A DNA stretch of 64,000 bases from Candidatus Binatia bacterium. Lineage in GTDB: Bacteria; Desulfobacterota; Binatia; Bin18. The notes under the pieces are model-generated. The model was not told the DNA's origin. It did no database searches and saw only the letters and a list, made by a program, of their open reading frames with translations. The first letter of the stretch is position 1. Each line of letters begins with the position of its first letter. Where the stretch lies: positions 544,001-608,000 of the forward strand of contig CAXXHG010000043.1 of assembly GCA_963666315.2 (NCBI GenBank), given 5' to 3'. This document shows, in pieces, positions 17,888-52,252 of this stretch. A program made the position numbers and the translations under genes.

Positions 17888-17908
17888 ATTGCAATACCCA
17901 ATAGCGTT

Positions 17909-18865: not shown

Positions 18866-18992
18866 TTCGGTATAACTCTCCAATTTCTCAGCTCCCTTCT
18901 CGACCAGACCGGACTGGATATTTTCATTATACGCAAACACAGAAATAAAACAGAGACACACAGACCACAGACTTATCCAGATTCTGCCAGAT

Positions 18993-29899: not shown

Positions 29900-30130
29900 T
29901 ATCAGAACTAGTTCCCCCCATAGCATGTGAAGCCCCGGCTTCTATCGCGCCGCCTGTTATGTCAGCGCTGCGCTGTATAGAAGACGGGAACCCTTTGACC
30001 GAGCTATATGTGAATCTCCTAGCCCGAGCGATTGACAAGGACCGCATCGGAGAAGCACACCCCGCCTTCGTTAAGATTATAGAACAACTCTCCCCGGATG
30101 AAGCCCTTATCATGTTAAAGTACGTGCTTT
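29900..30130 (+). pseudogene. Abi-alpha (DUF4393) family fragment
   Basis: [14 protein letters not shown]...ELYVNLLARAID...AHPAFVKIIEQLSPDEALI. Confidence 0.65.
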
Positions 30131-30203
30131 CTGTCCAACTTGCCCTGTTGCCCGTCTCACTCTGGAACACGATCGAGAATTGTGTTCCCGTCCTCTTGTT
30201 TCC

Positions 30204-30565
30204 TTACTTGCGGGGAGGCTTCGGAACCGTGCGTGAAGTCGGCATTCGTGAATCTATATCAGCCAGCCCCGACAAGATGATGGGGGCCGGTCGGGAAAGT
30301 CCGCGACCAAGCGGAGCTGGCCCCCCAGAGCTTCGACATAGCCGCGTAGCGTTGAAAGCAATAGATCCGTCCGTTTTTCCAACCGGGATACCCCCTCTTG
30401 TCCAATGCCCAGGGATTCCGCCATCCACTGTTGTGTGAGTTGATGGGCTTCGCGGAGATCCCGTAACGACATCTCTTCCGCAATTAACTCCGCCGCCAGG
30501 GCTGCCACGGCTTTCTGTTCATCCGCTGAGAGGCGGTTGATCATGTCTTTGAGTTGTACTGTCAT
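30204..30565 (-). pseudogene. XRE-family HTH antitoxin (HigA-like), C-terminal frameshift
   Basis: LRDLREAHQLTQ...LGIGQEGVSRLEKRTDLLLSTLRGYVEALGG; after DRPP the expected IILSGLAD tail lies in another frame. Confidence 0.75.
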
Positions 30566-30930
30566 GACTGGTTTCCTCGTCGTTGTACTTGCACCAAATG
30601 CGCGTCAAAACGTTTATCCGCCGTGGCAATCAACCGTTTGTAACAGCGCTGCTCATTCTGACCCCCTTTGTCGCCAGCGGCCAACACGATTGCCTGCCGG
30701 ACTGGATCAAAGGCAAAGGCGACCCGCCACACTCCCTCGTCTGCCTAAAACCGTAATTCTTTCATATTCGCGTGGCGCGAGTTCTTGAGCGTATCCACGC
30801 GGGGGCGGCCAAGACGGGGACCAAATTTCTCTAGTAACCGGGCATGGGCAAGGACCTGTATCCGTACGGAAGCGGGCATACCCTAGATTTCCTCCGCAAA
30901 CGCATCATCAAAGAGGACCGTCTAGTTCAT
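30562..30930 (-). pseudogene. RelE/HigB (Gp49-like) toxin with three in-frame TAG codons
   Basis: MN*TVLFDDAF...I*G...FGPRLGRPRVDTLKNSRHANMKELRF*ADEGVWRVAFAFDP...GDK; ATGA overlap with the antitoxin. Confidence 0.85.
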
Positions 30931-31058
30931 GTCTAATTGTGCACTTAAAAACATATGTTTTCAAGAACATCTTACAAAATGTTTACTGCCCTTTTTTCTT
31001 GCCTTGGTCCAAGATACCAGCCGCAGTGCTCACGCCCGGTCAATGAACAGCCGTAGCT

Positions 31059-31232
31059 TCACGACTTCTTCGGCCTACGTTTCTGTGCCGCTTTCCCGGT
31101 GGCAGCTGCTTCTATGCGTTGCCAGAATTCCGGGCTGACCTCGCGGTAATCGTCCCGCTCAACCACTTCCAAGAGCTTGGCTTCAACTTCATGACGGGAT
31201 GCAGCTTTCTTTTGGAGTTGAAAGTTCCATTT
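31059..31232 (-). CDS. ParD-like antitoxin, short
   Basis: 57 aa MELSTPKK...VEAKLLEVVERDDYREVSPEFWQRI...; only a vestige of a downstream toxin follows. Confidence 0.5.
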   Translation of the reverse strand, partial: KWNFQLQKKAASRHEVEAKLLEVVERDDYREVSPEFWQRIEAAATGKAAQKRRPKKS

Positions 31233-31306
31233 TTACCGGAAAAATGGAAGTATGGATTCCATATTTCTTAACCCCTTGAATGGAAAGGTCTTTTTCTCAG
31301 CTATGT

Positions 31307-32020
31307 TTAATACCCCTGCGCCTGCCCACCAAACAAGCGCTTCAACCGTTCCACCGGCCAAAAGCGGTTGATCACCACAATAAACACCTTGCGCAGCCGG
31401 TCTTCCGGGCACTGCAGCGGCCGCATGGCGTGCCAGGATTTGTCGCGGCGGGCGAAGAGCAGGCTGCAATTGCCTATGGCTTTTGATTTCGAGACTTTGT
31501 CAAAGTCCTCTAGCCGTGGAGCGGACTTGCGAGGGAAGCGGCCCCCATCGTCGAGTAGCAATGTCTGGCCGCCCCAGGTGGGATCCCAGTCCTGTTCGGT
31601 GTTGAAATAAAAAATATGTGAGCCGAGCTTGTGCTTGGCATCGCAGTGCGGCGAGATAGAACAGCCACGTGGGGTATAGTGCCAGTGAAAGCTGAGTTCA
31701 AATGCTCTCGTCCCGAGCAAACGACTCAGAAAAGTCTGATAGGTCGGGCTACGCAACTCAGCCACAAAGTCTTTCCACTCGTGGACCACCGACAAGTCGT
31801 CGGAGTATCCCAAAATAAACCGGTCATGGCCTTGCTGCCCGTGGGCGCGTTGGTTGTCGAAGCTGGGGGTAAACTGTGTCTGGTCGGGCAGATTGTTTAA
31901 GAGCCGTTGATAGCCCTCCTCAGTCAGCAATCGTTCCGGATTGATCCATGGATACGGCTGCCGAGCCTGAAAAGCCACCGTATCAATCGCACTGAGCTGA
32001 TCCAGATCAAGATATTGCAT
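31307..32020 (-). CDS. 2OG-Fe(II) oxygenase
   Basis: PHCD (HxD), WGGQTL, SWHAM, RKVF; abuts the asnB stop. Confidence 0.85.
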   Translation of the reverse strand: MQYLDLDQLSAIDTVAFQARQPYPWINPERLLTEEGYQRLLNNLPDQTQFTPSFDNQRAHGQQGHDRFILGYSDDLSVVHEWKDFVAELRSPTYQTFLSRLLGTRAFELSFHWHYTPRGCSISPHCDAKHKLGSHIFYFNTEQDWDPTWGGQTLLLDDGGRFPRKSAPRLEDFDKVSKSKAIGNCSLLFARRDKSWHAMRPLQCPEDRLRKVFIVVINRFWPVERLKRLFGGQAQGY

Positions 32021-33979
32021 TTACATCCACTGCTTATGCCAGGCTTGAAACATCAACACGTTCCACAACGGCCGCTTCCAATCCGATGTTCCAGCTATAT
32101 GCTCGGTCCACTTCTGCCGCACCAGGGCTGAGTTGAATATGCCGGTTTGACACAATGCCTGTTCCGACAGCAGCTCCTCTGCCCATTCACGCAACGGTCC
32201 GCGCAACCAGCCACTCAGCGGAACCCCAAAACCCTGCTTGGGACGTTCAACAAGCTCACGCGGCACATATTTATACAGTAACTGCCGCAGCAGCCATTTG
32301 CCCTGTCCGTTACGGATCTTCATGTGAGCGGGTAGCGTCCAGGTGAACTCGACAATTCGATGATCCAGCAGTGGCACCCGCACTTCAAGACTGACCCCCA
32401 TGCTGGCCCGATCGACCTTGGTCAGATTATTATCCGGCAGATAGGAAAGGGTGTCCAAAAACTGCATCTGAGAGACAATGTCCACCGCTGGAGTTGTGTG
32501 GTGTGTGAGATACGATTTCTGCGCCCCGTCAGCGTCCGCATTGATAACGAGTCTGGCCGGGTCCTCCCAGCGCCGCCACAGTTGGCGATCGTGTAAGTCG
32601 GCTGTATCGAGCGATAATGCACGGGAGAGTTGGTGAGTGTGTTTGACCAAACGAGAGAGTGGTTTAGGTGCAAGTGACTGTACATTTTCTAAGAACGGAG
32701 GAAGCAAGCCTGTGGCCTGCGCCAACACAGCACGGACAGGACGTGGCAACCGTGAGAATCGGCCCCATAGCTGGGCGGCTTTGATATAGCGTTTATACCC
32801 AGCGAATAGTTCATCGCCGCCGTCTCCGGAGAGCGAAACAGTGACCTCCTGCCGGGCCAAATGCGAGACAAAACAAGTCGGAATCTGCGAGGTGTCAGCA
32901 AAGGGCTCATCATACCAGTCAGGCAAGCGTGGCAGGAGGTCTGAGGCGTGACTTGGCTCGACAACAAGTGTCTGATGGTCAGTGCCTAGGTGTCGCCCAA
33001 TGCGCTGCGCATACTGGGATTCATCCCGGCCTGCTTCCTGAAAGCCAATAGTAAACGTCTTGATAGGACGCGGGCTGTGCTGCTGCATGAGCGCGACAAT
33101 GGTTGAAGAATCAATCCCACCCGACAGAAACGCGCCCAGAGGAACATCGGCAACCATACGCCGTTGGACTGCGTCACTCAGTAGGGTTTCGAGTTGGTCC
33201 AGTGCAAGTTGGTCCAATGTTTGTTGATCTCGTGTTTGTCCGTCATCCGCCTGGAGAGGAGCCTCAGTCCCTTGCTGGATAACATGGTTGAGATCCCAAT
33301 AGCGCGTGATGTGTGGCTCGTGCGACGTACGCAGCTGTAACATGCAGCCGGGTTCAAGTTTATACACGTCACGATAAATGCTGTGCGGAGCAGGAATATA
33401 ATTATAGCGCAGAAACGGAATAACCATGTCTCGGTCAAGCCGTGCGTCAAAGCACGGATGCGCTCGTAGCGCTTTCAGCTCAGAACCAAAGAGAAAGACC
33501 TGTCCGAAACGAGCCCAGTAGAGTGGCTTAATGCCGATGCGGTCGCGTACCAGGGTGAGACAGTGTTCTTGGCGATCCCATAGACCAAAGGCAAACATGC
33601 CGAGACAGCGCCTCACCGTCTGTTCGATCCCCCAGGCGGCACACGCTTCAAGCAATACTTCGGAGTCACTGTTCCCGCGGAAGATGTGGCCGTGCGCTTC
33701 GAGGTCTGCGCGGAGTTCCTGAAAGTTATACAGCTCGCCATTATATACCAGCACGAAACGCTCATCCGCAGACAGCATGGGTTGGCGGCCGCTTGGTGAC
33801 AGATCGATGACGGATAAGCGTCGATGTGCAAGACCGATTCCATGTGTCTGATCAACCCAGACCCCATTGTCATCCGGTCCGCGGGATACGAGGGTATCTG
33901 CCATGCGCGTGGCCAGCATTGAGAATTCAGACAGTCGAGGATTTGGAGCAGGGTCCAAAAATCCGCTTATCCCGCACAT
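32021..33979 (-). CDS. asnB: Asparagine synthase (glutamine-hydrolysing) family amidotransferase
   Basis: MCGISG Ntn start, HRRLSVID, YNGELYN, RDRIGIKPL, FLSGGIDSS, SGDGGDELFAGY, KVDRASM, RPKQGF. Confidence 0.93.
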   Translation of the reverse strand: MCGISGFLDPAPNPRLSEFSMLATRMADTLVSRGPDDNGVWVDQTHGIGLAHRRLSVIDLSPSGRQPMLSADERFVLVYNGELYNFQELRADLEAHGHIFRGNSDSEVLLEACAAWGIEQTVRRCLGMFAFGLWDRQEHCLTLVRDRIGIKPLYWARFGQVFLFGSELKALRAHPCFDARLDRDMVIPFLRYNYIPAPHSIYRDVYKLEPGCMLQLRTSHEPHITRYWDLNHVIQQGTEAPLQADDGQTRDQQTLDQLALDQLETLLSDAVQRRMVADVPLGAFLSGGIDSSTIVALMQQHSPRPIKTFTIGFQEAGRDESQYAQRIGRHLGTDHQTLVVEPSHASDLLPRLPDWYDEPFADTSQIPTCFVSHLARQEVTVSLSGDGGDELFAGYKRYIKAAQLWGRFSRLPRPVRAVLAQATGLLPPFLENVQSLAPKPLSRLVKHTHQLSRALSLDTADLHDRQLWRRWEDPARLVINADADGAQKSYLTHHTTPAVDIVSQMQFLDTLSYLPDNNLTKVDRASMGVSLEVRVPLLDHRIVEFTWTLPAHMKIRNGQGKWLLRQLLYKYVPRELVERPKQGFGVPLSGWLRGPLREWAEELLSEQALCQTGIFNSALVRQKWTEHIAGTSDWKRPLWNVLMFQAWHKQWM

Positions 33980-34764
33980 GAGCGGTCCTTTGTCGCTGGA
34001 GGCAACTGTTCCGACCTGCCCGACTGTCCCAGATTTCCCAATTTGGTTTTGACCCAACGCTGGAGTTTTGGGGCTCGGCGCACGTAGTAATGCCGCAGCG
34101 GATTTGCTTGCTCGTCAAATTCGTACACAAACGGCTCGCCTGTAAGCGAACGTTTCACACCTGGGATGTCGTTTTCCGCAATGCCATCAAGATAGGTGGT
34201 CAGTGCACGCAGGCTATTGCCGTGCGCGACTATCAAAATCTGTTTGCCTGCTTTGATCTGGGGAATTATCGTTTCGTGCCAGTAGGGGAGCACGCGCGCG
34301 CGGACGGCTTTGAGGGTTTCTGTGCGTGGCAGTTCTGCGTGTGTAAGCTCGGCATAGCGGGGATCATGGCCGGGAAAGCGCTCGTCTGTTGGGTCGAGGG
34401 CCGGGGGTGCGATATCGAAGTGCTGCTGCCAGATCACGACTTGTTCCCGGCCATAACGCTGGGCGATTTCTTGCCGGCTGAGTCCTTGCAGTGCACCACA
34501 ATGGCGCTCATTCAGCCGCCAGCTTGTATGGATCGGAACCTGGAGCTGCATGCCTTCCAGAACGATCTCAAGTGTATGCAGCGAACGCTGCAGATAGGAG
34601 GTAAAGCCCACGTCAAACGAAAAACCAGCCGCTTGCAGGAGCTGGGCGGCTCGTCTGACTTGCTCTTGGCCGTGTGGACTGAGATCGACATCGGCCCAGC
34701 CGGTAAAGCGACGGGCTTGGTTCCACATACTCTGGCCGTGACGAAGAAGAACAAGTTTGATCAT
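33967..34764 (-). CDS. gpmA: 2,3-bisphosphoglycerate-dependent phosphoglycerate mutase
   Basis: LVLLRHGQS, FTGWADVDL, WRLNERH, AHGNSLRAL. Confidence 0.9.
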   Translation of the reverse strand: MIKLVLLRHGQSMWNQARRFTGWADVDLSPHGQEQVRRAAQLLQAAGFSFDVGFTSYLQRSLHTLEIVLEGMQLQVPIHTSWRLNERHCGALQGLSRQEIAQRYGREQVVIWQQHFDIAPPALDPTDERFPGHDPRYAELTHAELPRTETLKAVRARVLPYWHETIIPQIKAGKQILIVAHGNSLRALTTYLDGIAENDIPGVKRSLTGEPFVYEFDEQANPLRHYYVRRAPKLQRWVKTKLGNLGQSGRSEQLPPATKDRSCAG

Positions 34765-37286
34765 ACGACGGTGTGAAAGCCGAGCAGGCGGCGAACCTTT
34801 TGGGCAACCTGGTCAAACTCCTGCAGAGCTGGACGTATCTTAAAATCCAAGGGTGCACCGAAAAAGCGCGCAATCTTGCGCTGGACTAGGGTGTCGTGCA
34901 ACGCGCTCAAATCCCGTCGGGGCTGGACAATGCCGCGTTCAATCAATCGAGCGCACACGTACGACAACCCACTTTGGGGTTGTATGCTGCCGCGCTTTTT
35001 GCGCTGCGTGATTTGGGCATGAGTGACTATCCACTCCTTGCAACTCCCGATCAGGTCCGCCGCTCGCTTTGGCAAGGGATAGATGGAGAGCGGTGTAGCG
35101 GTGGTTGCGGCTTCAGCCAACATGGACTCGCTCTCTCCGCTCACAATCAAAACGTCCGCTAGTGCCAGATAACCCAAATACGGATTGTCTTGCTGCCCCG
35201 CTTCCCAGGTATGCACGTAGTGGGCTGGACCCAGCCCGGCTATCAAGGCGGCTGTTTCCGCCTCGCCCGTTCGTCGGCTGGTCGTGGCAAAAACTTTTCC
35301 ACCCACACGTTCGGCAAACGTGCGGACATCTTCTCCCATTTTCCGGGCAATGCTGGGATCAAGCTGATAGCGGGCGGTCGCCCCTCCGACCAGCAGCATA
35401 ATCCATGGATGCGGAGCGTCCTGAACCAGGTGACACCACTGGTCTGCCCCCTGCTTGAGTCGCTCTGGGGTGATTTGCGTCAAAGGTGCCACAGTTTCGA
35501 TACGCCGAGGATGAGGCGGCAGACGAAAATGACTGCACGCGACCCCGATATCGGTGGTATTGGTGGGCCGGCTGCCTTTACGACCGAGCAGTACCAGCCG
35601 GGTGTGTCCTTTGCTTTGGCGCTGAATCCAGCGCGCAACACGCGCGGGGCGCCAGCCTGCGGTAATAATGAGATCGGGCCAGGGTGGGACAAGTGGGTCG
35701 GAATGGGCGACGTTTAAACCAAATCGCGTTACCCGCTGGGAGCCGAGCAGGCGTTTGTGCACATCAGCCAGCGCAGTAAAGCGTAAGGCCTTAGTTTCAT
35801 ATGGCCAGTCCAGGGCATCGGCGAGACCGAGCGCTTGGGCGGTATGGCCCGGCTTATGTGAGGTCAGGACCCAGACCGTTGGGAGACGGCCGAGGTTGCC
35901 GCCAAAAGAGATCTGGGTGCTGGACTTGGGTGTTGTTGACAACGGTTGGACGGCCAGTTGCCAGCGCACGGAGGGATAACGCGGACTGAGCAGGTCCAAT
36001 TGCGCCTGCCACCAGGTAGAGGGCCGCGGGCGTCCCCGCAACAAGTCGCCATTCGGAAGTTGTTGTTCATACGGAAACGCATGCACGGCGACGGCCACAA
36101 AATGGTGAGCACGGCGAAAGAGCTCTTCCAGCATCCAGGGCACATCTTCGTCTGGCACAAAATCAAGGCTATTCGTACAGACAACGCCGTCCGCGCTTTC
36201 TGCCCGACCGGAGTCGCGGGGGTTGCGGGGGTTGTATGATGCCGACTCGACAAAGACAGGATTATACTGCTGCACGCTGGCCCCGTTGCAACTGATTTGT
36301 CTGCTGCCTAAGCCAAACGAATAGTCCAGGATAGTGTGGCTTCCAGTCTGGGCGATAAGGGTCTCTACACACTTCTGGAGCGGATGGCCGTCACCGTTCC
36401 GGTCTGACACTCTCTGAGGCCGTGATGTCTGCCTGAGACTCGATCCGCTACGGAGGCGAGAGAGCAGCGCGGTGTATTGCGCACTCGGCTGCGCTGCTTG
36501 AAAGACCTGATAGCCGGCCTCATTGGCTGTTTGTTCTAAATGAAACCAAAGCTGGGCGACAGGATTATGCTGATACGCATAACGCTGGGGAAATGGCTGC
36601 CACGGCTGGGTCTGGATGGTGGTGTAGTGCAGCAGCTTCGATCGCTCAGCCTCGTATTCTCCGTCGCGTGCATTCCAGTGTTGATCAAGCGCACCCCATA
36701 GATCAGGGACTTCCCGGGCGGCGGCTTCTAACGCTTTACGGCGTTCGTGCTGCGCCGCTTCGAGTGTCCAGACCGTTTTCATCCGCTCGCAGTCGATCAG
36801 CATGACTGACGTGTCGCGGTCGTTTATAGACAGAAAGCCATGGCTGCCCAGAGCTGTGTCAAAAAGTTCGCCGGGATCGGCCAGATAGATTTGGTCCATG
36901 TCATTATAGATGGCAGTGCCGTGCCCGTCAGCAAAATGGGGAATAGCAAATCGATAGTTCGTAAATCCGGTCAGCCAACCGTGCTGATCAAAACCGGCCA
37001 GGTCTTTCATGAGATATAATTCGTACACCCGAGCGGGATCCCGGACCTGCTCAATGGACCAGATAAAGACGCGCTCGGCTCGGTATTGGGCCGGCTCGGT
37101 GCCAACAAAGATGCGGACCGCTGGCTTTTCGCTGGGAGCAACACCAGTGCGCACACCAAGGACGACACGCTCAAGCTGGGTCCGGGTGCCTGGTGTGTGA
37201 TACGGGTCTGTCCGCAGCAGCGAATCAAGTAATCTGCTCACTCTGCGTGCTGTTGTTGAAAAAGCCATAGGTCTACGACTAGGCAA
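34761..37286 (-). CDS. Fusion: GT-A glycosyltransferase + degenerate SAM-methyltransferase + ELM1/GtrOC1 domain
   Basis: VRIFVG...TGFTNYRFAIP...AIYNDMD (DxD); ILDYSFGLG...DGVVCTNSLDFVP; VWVLTSHKPGHTAQALGLA...WPDLII...TTSRRT...NPYLGYL...SESMLAEA. Confidence 0.75.
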   Translation of the reverse strand: MPSRRPMAFSTTARRVSRLLDSLLRTDPYHTPGTRTQLERVVLGVRTGVAPSEKPAVRIFVGTEPAQYRAERVFIWSIEQVRDPARVYELYLMKDLAGFDQHGWLTGFTNYRFAIPHFADGHGTAIYNDMDQIYLADPGELFDTALGSHGFLSINDRDTSVMLIDCERMKTVWTLEAAQHERRKALEAAAREVPDLWGALDQHWNARDGEYEAERSKLLHYTTIQTQPWQPFPQRYAYQHNPVAQLWFHLEQTANEAGYQVFQAAQPSAQYTALLSRLRSGSSLRQTSRPQRVSDRNGDGHPLQKCVETLIAQTGSHTILDYSFGLGSRQISCNGASVQQYNPVFVESASYNPRNPRDSGRAESADGVVCTNSLDFVPDEDVPWMLEELFRRAHHFVAVAVHAFPYEQQLPNGDLLRGRPRPSTWWQAQLDLLSPRYPSVRWQLAVQPLSTTPKSSTQISFGGNLGRLPTVWVLTSHKPGHTAQALGLADALDWPYETKALRFTALADVHKRLLGSQRVTRFGLNVAHSDPLVPPWPDLIITAGWRPARVARWIQRQSKGHTRLVLLGRKGSRPTNTTDIGVACSHFRLPPHPRRIETVAPLTQITPERLKQGADQWCHLVQDAPHPWIMLLVGGATARYQLDPSIARKMGEDVRTFAERVGGKVFATTSRRTGEAETAALIAGLGPAHYVHTWEAGQQDNPYLGYLALADVLIVSGESESMLAEAATTATPLSIYPLPKRAADLIGSCKEWIVTHAQITQRKKRGSIQPQSGLSYVCARLIERGIVQPRRDLSALHDTLVQRKIARFFGAPLDFKIRPALQEFDQVAQKVRRLLGFHTVV

Positions 37287-37409
37287 TTTTTTGTACGTAA
37301 GGGCGAGAAACGGCTGTGGCTATCGGTCTGATGCGGCCCGGGTAGGCACGGGCAAAGACAAGCAGCAGATGCATGACTAGAGGAACTCCCTAGTGGAGCA
37401 TGTGGAGCA

Positions 37410-38657
37410 TCATGATGCCTGCGTTCCAAGCAGATGTTTGCGGTTCCAGAACTGGACTAAACGCAGGGTGTGGAAGCCGAGTGAGGCCACCTGCCAGACA
37501 ACAATGGCAACAAAGACGGGAATCGGAATGTCAAGAAGTAATCCCAGCATAAACAGCGGCACATTGATATTCCGGCGCGAAATAAAGGTCCGCATGCGTT
37601 CATCTAGGGAGGTGTAACCGTGAATCGACTGGCCCATCCGGGCGCTAAACAGCCCGGCCACAATACGATCCAGAACATAAAAGACAGCCATCCACACCGC
37701 CAGTTGGAAGACGGGTGCGCCCGGTATCCCGCCACTTAATGCCCAAGCCCAGGCGAAATACCACACTGGAGGATGAACGATATCCAGCCCATGATCCAAG
37801 ATATCGCCGAGCTTGGACGCCGTGAATGTGAGCCGGGCCAACTTGCCGTCCACCGAGTCGAGTACGCTCATGGTGTAGGCGAGCGTAAAGGCCGAGATCC
37901 AGTATCCGTACGCGAAGAGCGGCACAGCGAGAAAGGTGATGAAGACATTAAATACCGAGATGACGTTAGGATGTACGCGCCAGCGGGCGAACGGACGTAC
38001 GGCACGCCATACCAGTGGCGGGTAGACATATTTGGTAAAAAAGTCGGTCGAGCCTTTATAGTTGGACCAAAACAGAAAGCGTTCGGCCCGGTCTCGGCTG
38101 GCTGTGTCCAGAATGCGAAAAAGATATACGGGCAGATCACGCCGGAGCTTGCGAATATACGACGGCACTTCGGCCAGTACGACTTCCTGGAGGCGGCCTG
38201 CCTGAAGACTGCGTTCCGCAAGCTTCGGCAGCCGGATTCCGGTTGAAGGGGGCAGGGGGTCCTGTCCTTCGAAACGAAGTGCAGCAGTCTGTGCTTCTCC
38301 GGCTTTTCCCCGAGCGGCCCAAGAACCCGAGCACTCGCCAAGATGGCGCAACAGGCGGCTATCCACAACAGCGTCCGCCTCTAGTGCGAGCAGCGGTTCG
38401 TTTTGGACCGTTTGAGACAGCGTCGTCCGATATTCCGACACTGTGCGACGTTCATGCCCCCAGCGTATCGAAAGCCGGCGCAGGAGATCCGGTGGCAGGA
38501 GCGAAGGAAGATCTACCGTCTCAGCAGAGAGCTGGACATAGACTTCGTTCGGGTCTAGCCCAGCTTCGATAATGGTATGTAGCTGGCGTTCGAGCAGCGT
38601 CATGCCGAAAATCCGCAGTCTGCTGCTCGGATTGGTCGCGTCTATCCAGATAAACAA
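37410..38657 (-). CDS. CDP-alcohol phosphatidyltransferase with N-terminal NTP-transferase-like domain (CpgC-like, copy 2)
   Basis: LDSVDGKLAR...SKLGDILDHGLD signature; N-terminal IFGMTLLERQL. Confidence 0.85.
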   Translation of the reverse strand: MFIWIDATNPSSRLRIFGMTLLERQLHTIIEAGLDPNEVYVQLSAETVDLPSLLPPDLLRRLSIRWGHERRTVSEYRTTLSQTVQNEPLLALEADAVVDSRLLRHLGECSGSWAARGKAGEAQTAALRFEGQDPLPPSTGIRLPKLAERSLQAGRLQEVVLAEVPSYIRKLRRDLPVYLFRILDTASRDRAERFLFWSNYKGSTDFFTKYVYPPLVWRAVRPFARWRVHPNVISVFNVFITFLAVPLFAYGYWISAFTLAYTMSVLDSVDGKLARLTFTASKLGDILDHGLDIVHPPVWYFAWAWALSGGIPGAPVFQLAVWMAVFYVLDRIVAGLFSARMGQSIHGYTSLDERMRTFISRRNINVPLFMLGLLLDIPIPVFVAIVVWQVASLGFHTLRLVQFWNRKHLLGTQAS

Positions 38658-38831
38658 GAATCTTTACCCCCTGTGCGGATGCCCATTCCCCACCATTCCC
38701 TATCCTAGGTGCAGGGTAGTCTAGCTGGGTGATGATGACGGCGAAAGAGAGGCGCGCTGGCTGTCTACGGCTCAGGCGGCAGTCTAGAGAGGAGGAATTG
38801 CGCAGTTGCGTACGCCGTCTACAATGCCGGC

Positions 38832-39674
38832 GTGGCTAGCGTGTTGGATCAGAAGGGAGACCCAGGAGCCCATAGTTCTGTCACGGCATTTGTTCTTGCC
38901 GGACGACGTGGGCCGACGGATGCCTTAGCTCAGGTGACAGGCCAGACGCATAAAGCCTGTATTCCCGTCGCTGGCGTGCCCATGCTGGCTCGGGTGCTGC
39001 GTAGCCTGGGCAGTACGCCACACGTACAGAAAATTGTGGTCAGCATTGACGAGACCAGCGTGTTGACTGCCCTGCCTGAGGCAGGAGCAATAGAGTTCCA
39101 CACGAGCCGCCACTCGCCGCCGGCAAGTGTTTTGGACTATTATGAGGCGCACCAGGGAGATGGCCCGCTACTGGTGACGACTGCCGATCATGCCTTACTT
39201 TCCCCACAGATGCTGGAGTATTTCTGTACAGCAGCCGAACAAACTGAGGCCGATGTGGTTGTTGGCGTAGTCACCGCTGCGCTTTTTCGATCTCAGTATC
39301 CGGATTCGCGCCGCACGTTTATCACGCTTCAGGATGAGAGTTTTTGCGGAACCAATCTTTTTCTTCTTCGTACGCCACAGGCAGCGAATGCCGTGCGGTT
39401 CTGGGAACGAGCCGGACGGTTCCGCAAGCGCCCCTGGCGCTTGGTGAGTGAGTTTGGTTTTGTGAACCTGCTGCGCTTTCTCTTTCGCAGGCTAGATCGT
39501 CGGACCGCTATAGAACAGGCTAGTCAGGTGTTGGAAGCGCAAGTGGGCATCGTTGAGATGCCGTTTGCAGAGGCAGCGATCGACGTGGATACTCGAGACG
39601 ACTTGGCTACTGTCGAGAATATTTTGGCGAGACGCGCGAGACAGGACGCTGCGCTTTCAGGGAAAGAGTCTTAG
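38832..39674 (+). CDS. Nucleotidyltransferase (CpgD-like cytidylyltransferase)
   Basis: VLAGRRG...HKACIPVAGVPMLARV, LVTTADHALL, GTNLF, AAIDVD. Confidence 0.8.
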   Translation: MASVLDQKGDPGAHSSVTAFVLAGRRGPTDALAQVTGQTHKACIPVAGVPMLARVLRSLGSTPHVQKIVVSIDETSVLTALPEAGAIEFHTSRHSPPASVLDYYEAHQGDGPLLVTTADHALLSPQMLEYFCTAAEQTEADVVVGVVTAALFRSQYPDSRRTFITLQDESFCGTNLFLLRTPQAANAVRFWERAGRFRKRPWRLVSEFGFVNLLRFLFRRLDRRTAIEQASQVLEAQVGIVEMPFAEAAIDVDTRDDLATVENILARRARQDAALSGKES

Positions 39675-39859
39675 AGCGTGTCTAATAAGTGTCTCTGTGG
39701 CCCAAGCCTGAGCGAAAGCGGCGTGACCAAGGCGCCCGAAACAGCCATATCCACTGTGATATGGCGATGGAGGGTAACAGGGACACGCTGTTTGCAGCCG
39801 GGCGACGTCCAGAATGAACTTTTTGGACACGCTCTTAAGAATAAAGAAGGATAAACCGT

Positions 39860-40585
39860 ATGTCGGAGAGCAAAGACCCCAAAGAAATCCTGGAACAGAC
39901 ACAGCAGCCGTTCAGCTCACCTGGATTTGATACATGGACGGCTGCCTGGGCCGTCTCGAAACGAAGAAAGAAACAGGCGTCACCGCCCGCGCCAGATACC
40001 ACGTCGGACACGCTGCGAGCCGTGGAAAATGATCCGGAAACACTACGCAGGAGAACCGAGAATCTGTTTCAGGGCCCAGTGTTGGATACGTGGACGGCTG
40101 CCTGGGCGGCTTCAAAAGGAAAAATAAAGGCGCGGCCACAACGCAAAAAAGACAATGCCACGGTCGTGCGACAGATCTATACGGATATCTATACAGGTAT
40201 CTCGACAGATATCTCGCAAAACGAGCTGGCTGCAGTTCTGCAAGCGCTTGCTGAGAATCAGACGCTTGCTGAGAATATTGAGTGGCAGTCGCCCGGACCA
40301 AAGGAAATTCCTTGGGCTGGAACTATCCGGGGTCGAGAGCAGGTGGCGCAGTGGTTTGCCATACTCGACGAAACGAGAGAGCTTGAACAATTTGTACCGC
40401 GAGAATTTATCGCCCAAGGAAATCAGGTTGTTGTGATGTGCGACGAACGCAGCCGGGTGAAAGCGACCGGCAAAGTGTATGAGGTGGCCTTGGTTGCCGT
40501 ATGGACGCTTCTCAATGGGACGGTCACTCACTACCGCGAGTCCTATGACACAGCGACGGTGTTGGCTGCATTATGGGCAGAGTAG
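39860..40585 (+). CDS. SnoaL/NTF2-like protein with duplicated N-terminal motif
   Basis: C-terminal IEWQSPGP..IPWAG..RGREQV..WF...EFIAQGNQVVV...YDTA; AAGGA RBS. Confidence 0.78.
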   Translation: MSESKDPKEILEQTQQPFSSPGFDTWTAAWAVSKRRKKQASPPAPDTTSDTLRAVENDPETLRRRTENLFQGPVLDTWTAAWAASKGKIKARPQRKKDNATVVRQIYTDIYTGISTDISQNELAAVLQALAENQTLAENIEWQSPGPKEIPWAGTIRGREQVAQWFAILDETRELEQFVPREFIAQGNQVVVMCDERSRVKATGKVYEVALVAVWTLLNGTVTHYRESYDTATVLAALWAE

Positions 40586-41973: not shown

Positions 41974-42933
41974 CTAGAGTAATTGTTCACTCAGGTGATG
42001 GAAGCTGGCATCTTCGGAACTGTACTCGCGGGTAGTGAGCAAAATGCCGAAACGCGGTCTGCCGTTTGCCTCTTGTTGCTGCTCGATTCGATACAAATGG
42101 TAGTGTGAACGCCGCTGTGGCCGGCGTCCAATGGCTGAAGACGCCCGGACTCCGACAACGGGAATCGGTCCGTGTGGTCCTGGAACACTCGCCCGTATGG
42201 TTTTGTGAATATGGCCGTGCAGAATGAGCTCGGCGCCGGTTTTAGCAATCACACGGCGAAAGGCGTCGGCATCCGTCAGCCTGCGACGGGCTGCCGTGTG
42301 CATCTCTTGCGGCGGATGGTGAATAAGAACGACCCGGCATAAGCGGGTTTCCGCCAGAGCGCTGAGAAGCTGTTCGAGTCGCTGCAGTTGACTCCGGCCT
42401 ACCTCTCCTGAGGCATACAAAGGCGCGGTTGCCTGTGCTGTTGAGACACCCACGACAGCAATGGGCCCACAGGTTCGGATAGTCGGGAAATTGGACGCGG
42501 TATGATTTGCGATATGATTTGAAAGAAGCGCAAGCAAGTCTGACGCAGCACTCGATAAATTGTCGGAGCGCATATAGTCGCTCCAATAATCCCAGGGGAA
42601 GCGTTCACTACTGGGTGTATAGGTATCGTGATTTCCGGGGATGAGAGAAACCTGTTGTGGACCGCCCAGCCGTTGAAGCCATGGCAGCGAGGCGGAGAAT
42701 TCGTCTTCCAGCGCAATGTTTGTCAGATCTCCCGTAATCACAAGGTGGTCTGGCTGCTGGGTACGCAAATCGGTGGCAAGAGCGGCCAATACCTCGGGTC
42801 GGTACTCCTTACGTCGACGCAAGGACCATGACAACGCGCCTAAGGCGCGCTTATTCAGGAATGCCCTAGGGTGTCGGAGACGGATTGGGGTCACGTGGAG
42901 GTCTGACAAATGGGCAAGTATGAAAACTGACAT
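41974..42933 (-). CDS. Calcineurin-like metallophosphoesterase
   Basis: HLSDLH, ITGDLTN, PGNHD, IHHPP, LHGHIH. Confidence 0.9.
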   Translation of the reverse strand: MSVFILAHLSDLHVTPIRLRHPRAFLNKRALGALSWSLRRRKEYRPEVLAALATDLRTQQPDHLVITGDLTNIALEDEFSASLPWLQRLGGPQQVSLIPGNHDTYTPSSERFPWDYWSDYMRSDNLSSAASDLLALLSNHIANHTASNFPTIRTCGPIAVVGVSTAQATAPLYASGEVGRSQLQRLEQLLSALAETRLCRVVLIHHPPQEMHTAARRRLTDADAFRRVIAKTGAELILHGHIHKTIRASVPGPHGPIPVVGVRASSAIGRRPQRRSHYHLYRIEQQQEANGRPRFGILLTTREYSSEDASFHHLSEQLL

Positions 42934-43005
42934 AATCCCTAAGTTATTCAGCCTATACCACTTCCCTAGGGTATGATAAGACCGCTCTTCCGCAGGAGCA
43001 CAGGC

Positions 43006-48518: not shown

Positions 48519-48750
48519 TCTTTTTTCCTAATCTTGCCTAGTCCCGCCTAGTCTTGCTTACCCCCGCTCATAACAAAGCCGGCTTCTATAAGAGCGCCCT
48601 AGGCCGCCTTGTCAAGAGAGATCTCTGGGAAGTCGAAGAGGGGGTCAATTGAGTAACATCGTTATTTCTAGTAAAACAACTGTGAAGTGGGTATGCCCTT
48701 GGCTAAATCCGGAAAATCTGTTACCTACCGTGCGATTTCATCGTGATTCA

Positions 48751-49785
48751 ATGGCTTCTGTGAGCATCTTGGTGACAATACCACGTGCGCCGGTGGTGAA
48801 GGCAGATTCTCGCGTCCTTGTGACTGGAGGAACTGGATTCATCGGATCACACTTCATCGACGCGCTTGTTGAACAAGGCGTGCGACCGCGCGTGCTCGTG
48901 CGTCGCACGAGTAATGTCTCTCAGCTCTCGGCACATGATCTCGAACTTATGACAGGCTCATTAGAAGATTCCGACAGTCTGGCCCGTGCGGTATCTGGGG
49001 TTGAGGTTGTCATCCATATCGCGGCCATAACAAAGGCGCCCACAGAGAAAAAATATTTGCGCGCTAACGCGGCCGGTACCCAAGCGCTTGTTGATGCAAT
49101 GCGCTCTGCTGAGCCACGTCCTCGACGGCTCGTCTATCTCAGTTCGCTTGCGGCAGCTGGGCCAGTGTTGGATGGACAACCCTTCGGACCAGACGACGCG
49201 CCACGACCTATTACTGCGTATGGACGAAGCAAGCTCATTGGTGAGCAAGCCTGTCTTGCTGCGTCTGACGCATTCGACGTTGTTGTCTTGCGTGCACCAG
49301 TGGTGTACGGACCACGAGAACGTGATTTTTTCTTGCTCTTTCGTTTGGCGACTCGGGGCATTTTGCCTACGCCAACGGGACCGGACCGCGTTGTCCAGCT
49401 CATCCATGTTGCGGATTTAGTTGAGGCGCTGATCCGTGGAGCAACAATGCCCGACGCACGTGGCATCTATCACGTAGCCGAATCACAATCCTATGCCTGG
49501 AGCGAGATTGCCGCGTGTATGGGGCGAGCAGTTGGGCGCTCAGTCCACCTGGTGCGTATCCCACAGCTCTTGATGCAAATTGCCGCAGCAGGCAGTGAAG
49601 TCGGGGCGGCAATAATAGGACGGGCGACCATATTTAATCGGGAAAAAGTCAAGGAGTTACTCGCTCCCGGCTGGTTGTGCGAAACGGCACTGGCCAGGCA
49701 AGAGCTAGGATTTGAGGCCAAGATTTCGCTTTCGACAGGATTTGCTGAAACAGCAGCATGGTATAAACGCAAGGCATGGTTGTAG
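48751..49785 (+). CDS. NAD-dependent epimerase/dehydratase family, probable ceramide reductase (CerR-like)
   Basis: VTGGTGFIG, YLSSLAA, YGRSK, VYGPRE; directly upstream of spt. Confidence 0.8.
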   Translation: MASVSILVTIPRAPVVKADSRVLVTGGTGFIGSHFIDALVEQGVRPRVLVRRTSNVSQLSAHDLELMTGSLEDSDSLARAVSGVEVVIHIAAITKAPTEKKYLRANAAGTQALVDAMRSAEPRPRRLVYLSSLAAAGPVLDGQPFGPDDAPRPITAYGRSKLIGEQACLAASDAFDVVVLRAPVVYGPRERDFFLLFRLATRGILPTPTGPDRVVQLIHVADLVEALIRGATMPDARGIYHVAESQSYAWSEIAACMGRAVGRSVHLVRIPQLLMQIAAAGSEVGAAIIGRATIFNREKVKELLAPGWLCETALARQELGFEAKISLSTGFAETAAWYKRKAWL

Positions 49786-49884
49786 TGTGGAAGGTCGTGG
49801 AGCCTGGAGGGGTGAGATGAAACCGGGACCACAACATGTCGCTAAAACTGACAATCTGGGATGTCACGGAGAGAGGGGGACGGG

Positions 49885-51087
49885 ATGAACCTTTTCGGGA
49901 AATGTGCTCGTTTTACTCGCGCTCGAGAGGCTCAGGCTACCGGGTATTACCCATTTTTTACGCCGATAGAATCATCGCAAGGGACAGAAGTGATGGTCCA
50001 CGGCGAGCCCAAGGTCATGATGGGCTCAAACAATTACCTTGGTTTAACCCACCATCCAAAAGTGTTGGCTGCTGCAGAGGCTGCACTCAAACGCTACGGC
50101 AGTGGCTGTACCGGTAGCCGTTTCCTGAATGGGACGCTGGATCTTCACGACCAACTCGAAGAGCGTCTGGCCCATTTTCTGAACAAAGAAGCCTCGCTGG
50201 TCTTTAGCACGGGTTATCAGACCAATTTAGGCATCCTGGCGACCCTGATCGGGAAAAGCGATTATCTCTATCTTGATAAGCTTGACCACGCCAGCGCGGT
50301 AGACGGCTCTCAGCTCGCCCATGGGACAGTACTCCGTTATCCGCACAGCGATCTCGTTACACTTGAACAACAGCTTGAGAAAACGCCCCCAAAGGCGGGC
50401 AAGTTGATTGTCACAGATGGCATTTTCTCCATGGAAGGCGACATTGCGGAGCTGCCTGGTTTAGTCGCGCTGGCCGAACAATACGACGCTGAGATTATGG
50501 TCGATGACGCGCACGCCCTGGGCGTCTTAGGAGAAAATGGCGGTGGTACAGCGCAGCATTTTCACCTGGAGGACAAGGTCAGCCTGATTATGTCCTCATT
50601 CTCCAAATCGCTGGCTGCCATCGGTGGGGTTGTGGCGGGGCCGGAGCCGGTTATCCACTATCTGAAACACCATGCTCGTTCCTTGATTTTTAGTGCCAGC
50701 ATGCCGCCTGCGTCTGTGGCCACGGTTTTGACTGCCCTGCAGATTATTGAGGAAGAGCCTGAACGTCGTGCAGCACTATGGCGGAACACCCACCGCATGC
50801 AAGACGGACTCCGGAGCCTGGGCTACGACCTGGGGGGGAGTGATACCCCGGTGATTCCTATTATTGTCGGGGATATGTGGTTGATGGGCATGATCTGGAA
50901 AGAGCTGTTTGACTCAGGCATCTTTACTAATCCAGTCATTCCTCCCGCCGTGCCGGAAAATTCGTGCCGTGTCCGGATCTCGATGATGGCAACGCATACG
51001 GATGAACAGATTGATTTTGTCCTAGACGTCTTTGCCCGTATTCGGCCTCACATTCAGGTGGAACAGGTAGAGAAGGTGGCCGTTTAG
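49885..51087 (+). CDS. spt: Serine palmitoyltransferase (alpha-oxoamine synthase)
   Basis: YYPFFTPI, GSNNYLGL, CTGSRFLNGTLDLH, STGYQTNLG, DHAS, DDAH, SFSKS, FSASMPP; flanked by CerR- and bCerS-like genes. Confidence 0.87.
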   Translation: MNLFGKCARFTRAREAQATGYYPFFTPIESSQGTEVMVHGEPKVMMGSNNYLGLTHHPKVLAAAEAALKRYGSGCTGSRFLNGTLDLHDQLEERLAHFLNKEASLVFSTGYQTNLGILATLIGKSDYLYLDKLDHASAVDGSQLAHGTVLRYPHSDLVTLEQQLEKTPPKAGKLIVTDGIFSMEGDIAELPGLVALAEQYDAEIMVDDAHALGVLGENGGGTAQHFHLEDKVSLIMSSFSKSLAAIGGVVAGPEPVIHYLKHHARSLIFSASMPPASVATVLTALQIIEEEPERRAALWRNTHRMQDGLRSLGYDLGGSDTPVIPIIVGDMWLMGMIWKELFDSGIFTNPVIPPAVPENSCRVRISMMATHTDEQIDFVLDVFARIRPHIQVEQVEKVAV

Positions 51088-51127
51088 TTCTTGGCTGGCC
51101 TGTCTCTGCTAGCGGGCAAGGTCGAGC

Positions 51128-52252
51128 ATGCGGGATGCCGTACGCATAGATCGTGTGGCAGGCCGGCAGGACCTTCAGCGTTTCATTCGACTCCCCTGGC
51201 GCTTATACCGCCAGGATCCGGCCTGGGTCCCTCCGCTCCTCTTTGATCTCAAAAATCTCCTCTCGCCTAAAAAACATCCGTTTCATCAACATGCCGATGT
51301 CCAATACTTCCTGGCCCGCCTGGACGGGGAAGTTGTGGGGCGTATTGCGGCTATTGTCAACCATCAGCACGTGCAATTCCATGCTGAGCCAGTCGGGTTT
51401 TTTGGGTTTTTTGAGAGCATTGACAATCAAGACGTTGCCACTGCGCTGTTGACGGCTGCTGAATGCTGGGTGGCCGAGCGCGGAATGCAACGCATACGCG
51501 GCCCTATGAATTTCTCGACCAACGAGGAATGTGGGCTGCTGGTTGATGGTTTTCACGATGCGCCCAAAATTATGATGCCGCATCATCTGCCGTACTATGG
51601 TGTACAGATAGAAACGGCGGGTTATGGAAAGGCGAAAGATTTGTTCGCATACATACTCGATGTGCGCGGCACCCCCCCCCCGGAACGGCTCGTCCGTGGT
51701 ATTAAGCGGCTGCAGCAGCGCCAGAATATTCGACTTCGACCCATCAGCAAAAAGCGGTTTGATGAAGAGATAAGAATCCTACATGGGATTTATCACCGTA
51801 CGTGGGAGAAAAACTGGGGTTTTGTGCCGATGACCGAAGCTGAGGTGGATCTGTTTGCGAGCCAACTTCGCCTCGTTGTTGATCCGAAACTGTGTCTTAT
51901 TGCGGAACACCAAAACGAGCCAGTAGGCTTTGCGCTCGCGATTCCCGATTATAACCAGGCCTTGCGTCATATCGATGGACGCTTGTTTCCGTTTGGTTTG
52001 CTGAAACTCCTATGGTACCGGCGCACCATCAATATGGCCCGTATTCCGCTGCTTGGCGTCAATCCGGGCTTTCGTCGTCGGGGCATTGAGGCGATGCTTT
52101 ATGTCAAGCTGTGGGAGGTCGTGCCACAAAACGGCTACCCGGTGGTCGAGTGTTCCTGGATTCTGGAAGACAACTGGGACATGCGACGCGGACTCGAACA
52201 GATGGGCGCGCACGTCTATAAGACGTACCGGGTATATGAAAAGGCGGTGTGA
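51128..52252 (+). CDS. bcerS: GNAT N-acyltransferase, bacterial ceramide synthase-like
   Basis: FIRLPWRLY..DPAWVPPL, GRIAA, GFFGFFE, RGPMNFSTNEECGLLV, NWGFVPM, ECSWILEDN, KTYRVY. Confidence 0.83.
   Translation: MRDAVRIDRVAGRQDLQRFIRLPWRLYRQDPAWVPPLLFDLKNLLSPKKHPFHQHADVQYFLARLDGEVVGRIAAIVNHQHVQFHAEPVGFFGFFESIDNQDVATALLTAAECWVAERGMQRIRGPMNFSTNEECGLLVDGFHDAPKIMMPHHLPYYGVQIETAGYGKAKDLFAYILDVRGTPPPERLVRGIKRLQQRQNIRLRPISKKRFDEEIRILHGIYHRTWEKNWGFVPMTEAEVDLFASQLRLVVDPKLCLIAEHQNEPVGFALAIPDYNQALRHIDGRLFPFGLLKLLWYRRTINMARIPLLGVNPGFRRRGIEAMLYVKLWEVVPQNGYPVVECSWILEDNWDMRRGLEQMGAHVYKTYRVYEKAV

Follow-up and report, generated by a model that had tools for sequence, protein, structure and literature searches.

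The chemistry of bacterial sphingolipid head groups is known from a few Proteobacteria and Bacteroidota, and in Caulobacter crescentus the steps past ceramide-1-phosphate have been assigned in part. The ceramide (di)phosphoglycerate pathway of this bacterium, with CpgA-D, CC_1153 and CC_1158 (available portions of PMC11324152, PMC12275187 and PMC13228409), was used as comparison system for a window of 64,000 nucleotides (nt) from the metagenome-assembled genome of an uncultured Candidatus Binatia bacterium of marine sediment (GenBank assembly GCA_963666315.2, contig CAXXHG010000043.1, positions 544,001 to 608,000 of the forward strand). The analysis concerned five packed genes of this window, here called the arm, which encode a second CpgA-type transferase (cpgA2), a fused glycosyltransferase (GT841), a phosphoglycerate mutase-like protein (the arm GpmA), an AsnB-like amidotransferase and a 2-oxoglutarate (2OG)-dependent oxygenase. 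In the passages available from PMC11324152 the Caulobacter PF01066 protein is CC_1159/CpgA, CpgC (CC_1161) is Tam41-like, CC_1153 is a MobA/CofC-like transferase of 291 amino acids (aa) and CpgD (CC_1152) carries PF00483; a LicC-like fold of CpgD is reported in the available part of PMC13228409.

By domain content, which is the sole comparison made with Caulobacter, the window holds a Cpg-type cluster. Common to both, near spt/cerS, are a CpgB-like ceramide kinase of the DAGK type, a PF01066 transferase, a Tam41-like candidate, a MobA-like nucleotidyltransferase of the CC_1153 kind and a CC_1158-like metallophosphoesterase. Unlike Caulobacter, the window comes from a different phylum, has two CpgA paralogs and lacks a LicC/CpgD-type gene in the cluster; the cluster type is extended here by a transferase combining GT8 and ELM1, a paralog of the dPGM kind, AsnB, a 2OG oxygenase and also an ABC exporter, the gene of which is lost in the window. 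The terms 'glycosyltransferase', 'phosphoglycerate mutase' and 'Elm1' did not occur in the text and supplement passages of the Caulobacter papers that were searched, and no paper linking Binatota to sphingolipids was found in the literature. An uncultured phylum here carries the Cpg gene set together with a conserved add-on module, whose enzymes are new candidates relative to the Caulobacter pathway, among them a candidate sphingolipid glycosyltransferase of the ELM1/KdoT family and a candidate amidation step of the AsnB type. The existence of the arm, its conservation and its tie to sphingolipid genes of the Cpg type are established; its biochemistry is inferred.

Two further systems are close to single arm proteins. 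KdoT of A. baumannii (A1S_2903), described in the accessible text of PMC12856342 and PMC10936431 as the sole characterised bacterial ELM1 protein, transfers 3-deoxy-d-manno-octulosonic acid (Kdo) from CMP-Kdo to Kdo2-lipid IVA; its conserved SRRT motif was modelled on the donor carboxylate, R180 being needed and R179 not (PMC12856342, same portion). Compared by family, fold and motif, the C-terminal module of GT841 shares with KdoT the PF06258 domain, the GT-B fold, an SRRT motif in which the second Arg (R180 in KdoT) is invariant, and the context of a lipid-linked acceptor. KdoT differs in being a stand-alone protein of about 35 kDa from a lipooligosaccharide core locus, whereas the window module follows a GT8 module and a methyltransferase-like one in a single fused protein, which is encoded in a sphingolipid cluster. 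With the GpmA/PGAM/BPGM enzymes the arm GpmA shares the RHG nucleophile and the core residues; it differs from them by a Gln-Gln pair, a basic tail, its accessory status, its constant linkage to the cluster within the genus and its separate clade.

Conservation of the arm and its linkage to cpg genes

The arm runs from 38657 to 31307 as five tightly packed open reading frames (ORFs) of the minus strand, whose coordinates were confirmed. The GT841 stop and the gpmA start share an ATGA overlap at 34761-34764, the 3′ end of gpmA (stop codon 33967-33969) overlaps the asnB start (ATG at 33979) by 13 nt, and the TAA of asnB abuts the ATG of the oxygenase gene at 32020 without a gap. For GT841 itself, the ATG at 37268 is a more probable start than the TTG at 37286. 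The arm genes are translationally coupled and conserved as a block. The initial annotation had described the same packing, and its domain names for glycosyltransferase, GpmA, AsnB and oxygenase agree with the Pfam and NCBIfam calls, that of the oxygenase lying below the gathering score. Promoter and terminator counts in a scan of 30400-39900 were at background (5 vs 4.4; 14 vs 9.7).

The related loci were taken from metagenome-assembled genomes, mostly titled Candidatus Binatia. The arm order recurs, at least in part, in 18 of 18 related loci fetched and in further genomes, with the synteny cpgA2, ABC exporter, GT841, (gpmA), (asnB) and oxygenase, always facing the nucleotidyltransferase gene ntp280 and adjoining cpgA1/cpgB. 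The genus-wide core consists of the CpgA paralog, the MsbA-like ABC exporter, GT841 and the 2OG oxygenase; gpmA and asnB come and go among relatives, so that the arm is not fixed but a core with optional members. A GT841 match was obtained in 23 of 24 same-genus genomes (18 full length, two ELM1-only in G012 and G017, one stop-broken in G019 and two contig-end fragments), the genome without a match being G006. The G019 gene (G019:C1:2634299-2636427) lies in pieces with TGA and TAG stops and is probably a pseudogene.

One draw of 151 class genomes, in which G105 was counted only as a negative, was used for the counts of GT841, the bacterial ceramide synthase bCerS and CpgC-like genes. GT841 or its modules occurred in 35 of these genomes, in six families, and a CpgC-like gene in 41: 35 genomes had both, none GT841 only, six the CpgC-like gene only and 110 neither. 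With bCerS at a cut of E<=1e-60, chosen post hoc, the corresponding numbers were 27, 8, 6 and 110; the looser cut of E<=1e-20 (27, 8, 42 and 74) matches 69 of 151 genomes and takes in paralogs of 23-31% identity. Kin are not independent, so these tables overstate the support, and no statistical test is claimed for them. Among the eight GT841-positive genomes without bCerS, five were searched, and Spt was found at 49-51% identity in three (G028, G108 and G160), near GT841 in two. These three genomes, of families f5 and f20, have Spt, the CpgC-like gene and GT841 without a bCerS match at E<=1e-20, and their lineages may use a different ceramide N-acyltransferase.

Linkage was also found by position. 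In 15 of 22 non-genus GT841-positive genomes, by comparison of coordinates by eye, GT841 lies <=10 kb from a CpgC-like or bCerS gene. The locus L031, labelled Myxococcales, carries LptF/G, Spt, u334, CpgB and ntp280 on one side and ABC, GT841, ELM1, oxygenase and sulfotransferase genes on the other; the divergent layout of ntp280 and ABC-GT841 beside cpgB is repeated in L031 and on contig C31 of G028, with spt too in L031. Synteny, this divergent layout and the class tables together support that the arm travels with cpg/spt genes rather than with a capsule or lipopolysaccharide (LPS) locus, as the initial annotation had proposed; the co-occurrence it had asked about holds in 35 of 35 GT841-positive class genomes, all of which carry the CpgC-like gene.

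Missing from the initial account was the loss of the exporter gene in the window. In the relative L018 an ABC half-transporter of 580 aa (L018:8256-9998, identified as an ORF with PF00664 and PF00005) stands between cpgA2 and GT841, and tblastn matches to it were obtained in 10 of 14 further mapped regions, including all eight of the same genus; its top NCBIfam matches, none of which reaches the cut-off of its model, are of the HepA, MsbA and PglK types. In the window, alignment indicates a clean in-frame deletion by which the 5′ and 3′ ends are kept and about 1.65 kb are gone. Contigs of three runs span the junction with no inserted sequence: X1, which may be the source sample, X3 (one contig of 1006 nt over 36785-37790) and X4 (covering 37235-37553). 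Since X3 and X4 come from other studies, the deletion is taken as real in related marine-sediment populations.

The dPGM-like paralog of the arm

In the arm GpmA the catalytic core of phosphoglycerate mutases is kept (RHG nucleophile His9, Arg60, Glu86, His181 and Asn183); the RHG His, the second His, Arg60 and Glu86 are invariant in 10 of 10 aligned sequences and in all 20 further copies scored. The protein scores 315.8 bits against NF010713 (cut-off 305) and 289.3 against TIGR01258 (cut-off 81.7), the L024 ortholog reaching 300.8 against NF010713 and thus staying below 305. Its match to the Burkholderia dPGM 3lnt has an E value of 4e-83, and full-length identity to bacterial dPGMs is 55-58%.

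The difference lies at the distal phosphate site, where dPGM has W-R-R-S-Y and the arm GpmA W-Q-Q-H-F. BPGM numbering was mapped onto the protein, and its offset was checked against the alignment with the Burkholderia dPGM; Gln113-Gln114 of the window copy correspond to Arg116/Arg117. According to the available part of PMC8972806, Arg100, Arg116, Arg117, Asn190 and Tyr92 of BPGM hold the phosphoryl group of 3-phosphoglycerate (3-PGA, 3-PG) and 2-phosphoglycerate (2-PG). Position 100 is Arg in the arm GpmA, and its C-terminal tail is basic and different from that of dPGM. Moreover, the Tyr of the ERHYG motif is replaced by Cys at residue 89 (region of 34498-34500) in the window copy only, being Tyr in all 29 other copies scored.

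The remodelling follows the genomic context. Gln-Gln is present in all eight Binatia copies aligned, in 5 + 2 further genomes of the genus and in two sister-genus genomes (G049 and G066). Outside the genus, copies adjoining GT841/ELM1 or the oxygenase gene have QR (G025, G028, G123, G108 and L133), QS (G145), QY (G109) or QL (L032); of the 11 linked copies outside the genus, 10 are without Arg116. The unlinked long copies have K/W-RR/HGN in 11 of 11 cases, and Arg-Arg is also found in the short form. In a metagenome scan for GpmA relatives, all 79 canonical loci had Arg-Arg, none of them with GT841/ELM1 or a credible cpg neighbour, and a single copy had Gln116, which leaves n=1 for the variant. 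Among the best 150 representatives from 1.8 billion proteins, 137 keep Arg116, eight have Gln at this position and none has Gln-Gln. In a quick maximum-likelihood tree, 14 linked copies, seven Gln116 representatives and G036:C52 were split from 27 canonical rows with an SH-aLRT of 91, the labels linked and free having been set by context and the Gln116 representatives picked by motif. From these sequence comparisons we conclude that the arm GpmA belongs to a distinct, cluster-linked dPGM-like subfamily with a remodelled distal phosphate site.

The long gpmA occurs in 17 of 24 genus genomes, always within the arm, and is missing from seven; in the class sample a long GpmA-like gene lies <=1 kb from GT841/ELM1 in 17 of 35 genomes, in five families. 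The check for a separate housekeeping gpm, as the initial annotation had suggested, yielded a candidate: a short dPGM is present in the window genome (203 aa, PRK01295-like with 294 bits, TIGR01258 274 vs 81.7) and in 22 of the 24 relatives from the genus, among them all seven without the long form. An iPGM (TIGR01307) was not found in the window genome, which is 92% complete.

The earlier proposal left two roles for GpmA, supply of the phosphoglycerate or trimming of the head group by its histidine phosphatase fold. Under the first, a working mutase would turn 3-PG into 2-PG, from which a cytidylyltransferase would make CDP-glycerate for the CpgA-type transferases, and the rest of the arm would tailor the product. 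In favour of such a role are the preference of Caulobacter CpgD for D-2-phosphoglycerate (accessible part of PMC13228409), the score above the GpmA equivalog cut-off with all core residues in place, the status of the arm GpmA as an extra copy beside the candidate housekeeping dPGM, and a GpmA-like gene inside the spt/cerS/cpgB/cpgA cluster of G037. However, supply of 2-PG is weakened because the arm-linked genus copies have lost the Arg116/Arg117 pair for the substrate phosphate: Gln-Gln replaces it in the genus copies read and Arg116 is gone from nearly all other linked copies, while free copies keep both residues. In addition, gpmA is coupled to the glycosyltransferase gene and not to the nucleotidyltransferase gene, and the cpg genes are kept without gpmA in 7 of 24 genus genomes. 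We therefore regard supply of 2-PG as improbable; trimming fits better, and the sequences tilt slightly towards a specialised phosphatase or mutase that is not a 2-PG supplier.

Synthase-then-phosphatase pairs such as PgsA/Pgp, PIP synthase/phosphatase and GpgS/GpgP are known, the phosphatases being of other folds except for GpgP. By this logic, if the acceptor of a CDP-alcohol or glycosyl transfer is itself phosphorylated, the product would end in a phosphate for a dedicated phosphatase to remove; PIP and archaetidylinositol-phosphate synthases head the NCBIfam matches of the CpgA paralogs. GpgP, a histidine phosphatase, was formerly annotated as a phosphoglycerate mutase, the GT8 module is presumably a retaining GT-A enzyme like GpgS, and 4pz9 and 6s2q, both named glucosyl-3-phosphoglycerate phosphatase, are among the PDB matches of the arm GpmA. 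A reading of GT841 and GpmA as a glycosyl-3-phosphoglycerate synthase and phosphatase making a soluble glycosyl-glycerate solute unrelated to any membrane lipid is nonetheless very improbable, as the block contains a membrane CDP-alcohol transferase and an ABC lipid/glycan exporter and is nested in cpg genomes, and the match of the arm GpmA to dPGM, at E 4e-83, is much stronger than that to GpgP, at E 1e-6.

No relevant paper linking a phosphoglycerate mutase to an spt gene cluster was found in the literature. The pocket of the subfamily is remodelled systematically, and routine annotation as GpmA is probably misleading; a Gln116 dPGM-like phosphatase or mutase for head-group phosphoesters would, if true, add an activity not known before to those of this fold. 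As a side observation, a Gln116 GpmA-like gene and an arm-type oxygenase gene (58% identity) in L133 (L133:1300-4134) lie beside a divergent LPS kinase gene of the Kdo/WaaP family, with no GT841 in the 6.6 kb available.

Predicted glycosyltransferase, amidotransferase and oxygenase functions

Three conserved modules, across which 12 homologs align, were distinguished in GT841: a GT8-fold module at ~36477-37124, a middle module at ~35922-36389 and an ELM1/KdoT-like GT-B module at 34764-35852. Searched as a whole against the PDB, the sequence gave nothing at E<=1, and the sole match of the profile search was WbbM (E 0.24), a protein in which, as in GT841, a GT8 domain is fused to a second transferase module; the partner in GT841 is ELM1, unlike in WbbM. 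A structure model of the N-terminal module matched GT8 structures in Foldseek, namely GlyE and 3tzt (E 5e-9 to 1e-8, TM 0.55-0.62) as well as WbbM, glycogenin and LgtC, and the module has an Atlas score of 0.90 to GT8 clusters. D129 and D131 are invariant in the 12 homologs and are taken by us to be the DxD motif of the GT-A fold. On the basis of the model, the N-terminal module is assigned a GT8-type GT-A fold. The middle module (aa ~300-455) has by eye the look of a degenerate class-I methyltransferase (a motif of the LDYSFGLG type, then DGVVC...LDF.PDED), gave no Pfam family at E<=1 and no PDB match, and is absent from some split forms (G049 and G066).

The C-terminal module matches PF06258 with 178.4-182.4 bits (gathering score 27). 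Its model (pLDDT 88.7) has a GT-B fold with Z scores of 16.1-12.4 to UDP-GlcNAc 2-epimerase (16.1), MurG, MGD1 and WaaA. In the S-R-R-T sequence at aa 670-673, all 12 homologs keep S670, R672 and T673, and 11 keep R671. The module is read as KdoT-like because fold and motif match the KdoT biochemistry and the R180 mutagenesis. GT841 is the only PF06258 protein of the window genome, in which KdsB and WaaA are present, so that CMP-Kdo is available. Transfer of an acidic sugar by the ELM1 module is, by this analogy, a tentative assignment. If a Kdo-like sugar were added, the lipids would imitate the inner core of LPS in structure, which bears on outer membranes with less or no LPS.

The same likeness would also suit a role in LPS itself, with ELM1 as an inner-core transferase of the KdoT type, the GT8 module adding a core hexose (LgtC/WaaJ-type), an MsbA-like ABC protein for transport, and the proximity to cpg genes explained by clustering of genes for outer-membrane lipids. 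KdoT acts on Kdo2-lipid IVA (PMC12856342, available part), the GT8 enzymes include LPS-core transferases such as LgtC, the genome makes Kdo and has WaaA, and in L133 the GpmA and oxygenase genes are paired with a Kdo/WaaP-family kinase gene. Against this, GT841 was found in none of the 110 class genomes without a CpgC-like gene, although LPS genes, which were not surveyed there, are expected throughout the class; the arm is headed by a CpgA paralog and faces a CC_1153-type gene, and the <=10 kb linkage to CpgC-like or bCerS genes extends to most GT841-positive genomes outside the genus. An LPS-decorating arm is hence considered unlikely.

The AsnB-like protein combines PF00733 (398 bits) with GATase domains and exceeds TIGR01536 (478.8 vs 267.1), remaining below the EPS-type TIGR03108 (608.8 < 816.9) and the AsnB equivalog NF006949 (259.9 < 499). 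It has an M-C-G-I start with the nucleophile Cys2 and an SGGIDSS PP-loop, and belongs to a large group of proteins of 640-660 aa with generic names. Its closest solved relative is the hydroxyamidotransferase 7ylz, a carboxylate-modifying enzyme of the TsnB9 type; E. coli AsnB aligns over the glutaminase domain only. The gene lies inside the arm in five of 24 genus genomes (G024, G009, G020, G021 and G003) and in the window. The arm protein is the sole AsnB homolog of its genome; a homolog occurs in eight genus genomes and none in 16, so that AsnB is not the genus route to asparagine, which bears out its earlier description as a tailoring-type paralog rather than a housekeeping enzyme. AsnB identity tracks that of the neighbours (84% for AsnB and 70% for GT841 in G021; 62% and 53% in G003), a pattern that speaks for long-standing membership and repeated losses more than for a recent import. 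Amidation of a head-group carboxylate by AsnB may be put forward tentatively. As for its target, the carboxylate of an acidic sugar would be as good as that of glycerate, because the ELM1 module resembles a Kdo transferase.

The oxygenase scores 24.5 bits against PF13640 (2OG-FeII_Oxy_3; gathering score 27), and orthologs reach 28.1 and 30.0. H125-x-D127 is invariant and the distal His199 is present in eight of nine sequences. Its profile matches PDB 9ei6 (E 9e-11), a P4H-like structure of unknown function on which no paper was found in the literature. In nearly all loci the oxygenase gene comes after GT841 or gpmA.

Proposed pathway and neighbouring genes

In the pathway proposed here, ceramide from Spt, CerR and bCerS would be phosphorylated by CpgB, and CpgC and CpgA1 would give a head group of the phosphoglycerate type. 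CpgA2 would add a further phospho-alcohol, the nucleotide-activated donor coming from the divergent MobA/CofC-like nucleotidyltransferase. At the cytoplasmic face GT841 would add sugars, the GT8 module using a UDP-sugar to attach a hexose and the ELM1 module, by analogy to KdoT, attaching an acidic sugar activated with CMP, for instance Kdo, with Arg672 holding the donor carboxylate. The arm GpmA would act as phosphatase (or mutase) on a phosphoester of the pathway, either phosphoglycerate or a sugar phosphate with a bulky substituent at the neighbouring position. The P4H-like oxygenase would hydroxylate the product, AsnB, where present, would amidate a carboxylate, either that of glycerate or that on the acidic sugar, and the MsbA-like ABC protein would flip the product, a step missing in the window genome.

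That the arm is a tailoring module of the sphingolipid pathway is considered probable. The full explanation, an accessory module for head-group elaboration and export in a Cpg-type phosphosphingolipid pathway, is about evenly balanced between being right and wrong. The most specific version is speculative and, taken as a whole, rather unlikely: Binatia and related uncultured lineages would build an LPS-like glycolipid on ceramide-phosphoglycerate, with a hexose and a Kdo-type sugar added by the fused GT8 and KdoT-like enzyme, a Gln116 phosphatase or mutase, neutralisation by AsnB and MsbA-like flipping.

Several observations weigh against the tailoring reading, in addition to the kinship among the genomes counted. 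All substrates in this lineage are ones that we infer. In L034 (labelled Alphaproteobacteria) the N-terminal GT841 modules stand alone, with no cpg match within 21 kb. The GT8 assignment comes without a Pfam PF01501 (GT8) match and without any family at E<=1 for aa 1-279, and the model of this module, made from 13 sequences, has a pLDDT of 76, i.e. moderate confidence; SRRT is common to the whole ELM1 family, so that the motif does not fix the donor. The arm GpmA passes the GpmA equivalog cut-off with its core intact, making residual mutase activity possible, and the linked copy in G117 keeps Arg-Arg. The window has no CpgD (LicC-type) gene, and the LicC-like candidate on another contig may be either the missing CpgD or an enzyme of the MurU/LicC type. 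Finally, the arm is labile: GT841 is absent (G006), reduced to ELM1 (G012 and G017) or broken by stops (G019), gpmA is missing in 7 of 24 and asnB from most genus genomes, and with the exporter gene deleted and the Tyr-to-Cys change private to its GpmA, the arm may be decaying in the window lineage.

The features of the arm and its surroundings are collected in Table 1.

Table 1. Coordinates of the arm and of the adjacent sphingolipid genes in the window
Feature	Position	Strand	Remark
P4H-like 2OG-Fe(II) oxygenase, 237 aa	31307..32020	-	final arm gene
AsnB-like glutamine-dependent amidotransferase, 652 aa from the M-C-G-I start	32021..33979	-	accessory arm member
Arm GpmA, 265 aa	33967..34764	-	accessory dPGM-like histidine phosphatase, 'Gln116' subfamily
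GT841, 841-aa ORF 34761-37286	34761..37268	-	likelier extent; C-terminal PF06258 ELM1
ABC half-transporter remnant, 31 codons, in-frame	37279..37374	-	alignment to relatives
cpgA2, CpgA paralog, 415 aa	37410..38657	-	cytoplasmic N-terminal domain and CDP-alcohol phosphotransferase membrane domain; heads the arm
ntp280, MobA/CofC/KdsB-like nucleotidyltransferase	38832..39674	+	divergent from the arm; matches the published CC_1153 description
CC_1158-like metallophosphoesterase	41974-43065	-	Pfam
cpgA1	42973-44223	+	Pfam PF01066
u446, 446-aa ORF of no family	44112-45452	+	between cpgA1 and the CpgB-like gene
CpgB-like lipid kinase, DAGK-type	45434-46432	+	Pfam
u334, CpgC-like gene (Tam41-like candidate)	46429-47433	+	Atlas
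Ceramide core: CerR-like epimerase-family reductase, Spt, bCerS-like GNAT	48649..52252	+	Pfam

Two names of the initial annotation had to be corrected. The gene heading the arm, which had been called a CpgC paralog, is a CpgA/CC_1159-type paralog because it carries PF01066 (37.2 bits, with weak NCBIfam matches to PIP and archaetidylinositol-phosphate synthases); it has 35% identity over 323 aa to the second PF01066 copy, cpgA1. The divergent gene ntp280, taken before for CpgD-like, encodes a MobA-like protein of the CC_1153 type (PF12804 50.9 bits, PF02348 24.3, weak KdsB and CofC NCBIfam matches, top PDB match 2dpw), and BLAST found no similarity between it and a LicC/CpgD-like protein from elsewhere in the genus. 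Source names of its relatives are CobY, MobA, CMP-Kdo synthetase and 2-phospholactate guanylyltransferase. Every locus of the genus shows it transcribed away from the arm, as do L031, G028 and G003.

A LicC/CpgD-like nucleoside triphosphate (NTP) transferase gene was located on another contig, G000:C7 (L050:7517-12870), adjoining genes for an APH-family kinase, a methyltransferase and a fused LptF-LptG of 759 aa. As CpgD, the NTP transferase of C7/L024 was set aside as unproven, given the APH-type kinase neighbourhood and the weak resemblance to MurU/LicC. The gene u334 is a CpgC candidate by its Atlas score of 0.99 to clusters that bear the labels 'phosphatidate cytidylyltransferase' and Tam41_Mmp37, the latter on 10% of members; u334 matched no Pfam family at E<=1, and PF09139 was not found in the genome. 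Between u334 and the ceramide core lies a desaturase-family gene on the plus strand. For u446 no Pfam or NCBIfam family was found; it is present in the window, L018, L019, L023, L027 and G012, and in other genus genomes without it cpgA1 abuts cpgB.

Downstream of the oxygenase gene, at 29959-31300, the window contains an Abi_alpha fragment and small ORFs. In L024, the only relative examined here, the corresponding place is occupied by SDR, acyl-CoA dehydrogenase, GT4 and NTP-transferase genes, and this difference indicates a local rearrangement or insertion. Sulfotransferase genes adjoin GT841 loci in two distant lineages (L031:14220-15374 and L032:3919-4896), and a CysN/C-CysD pair for sulfate activation is encoded in the window at 15905-18961, about 13 kb from the arm; a sulfated glycolipid is conceivable.

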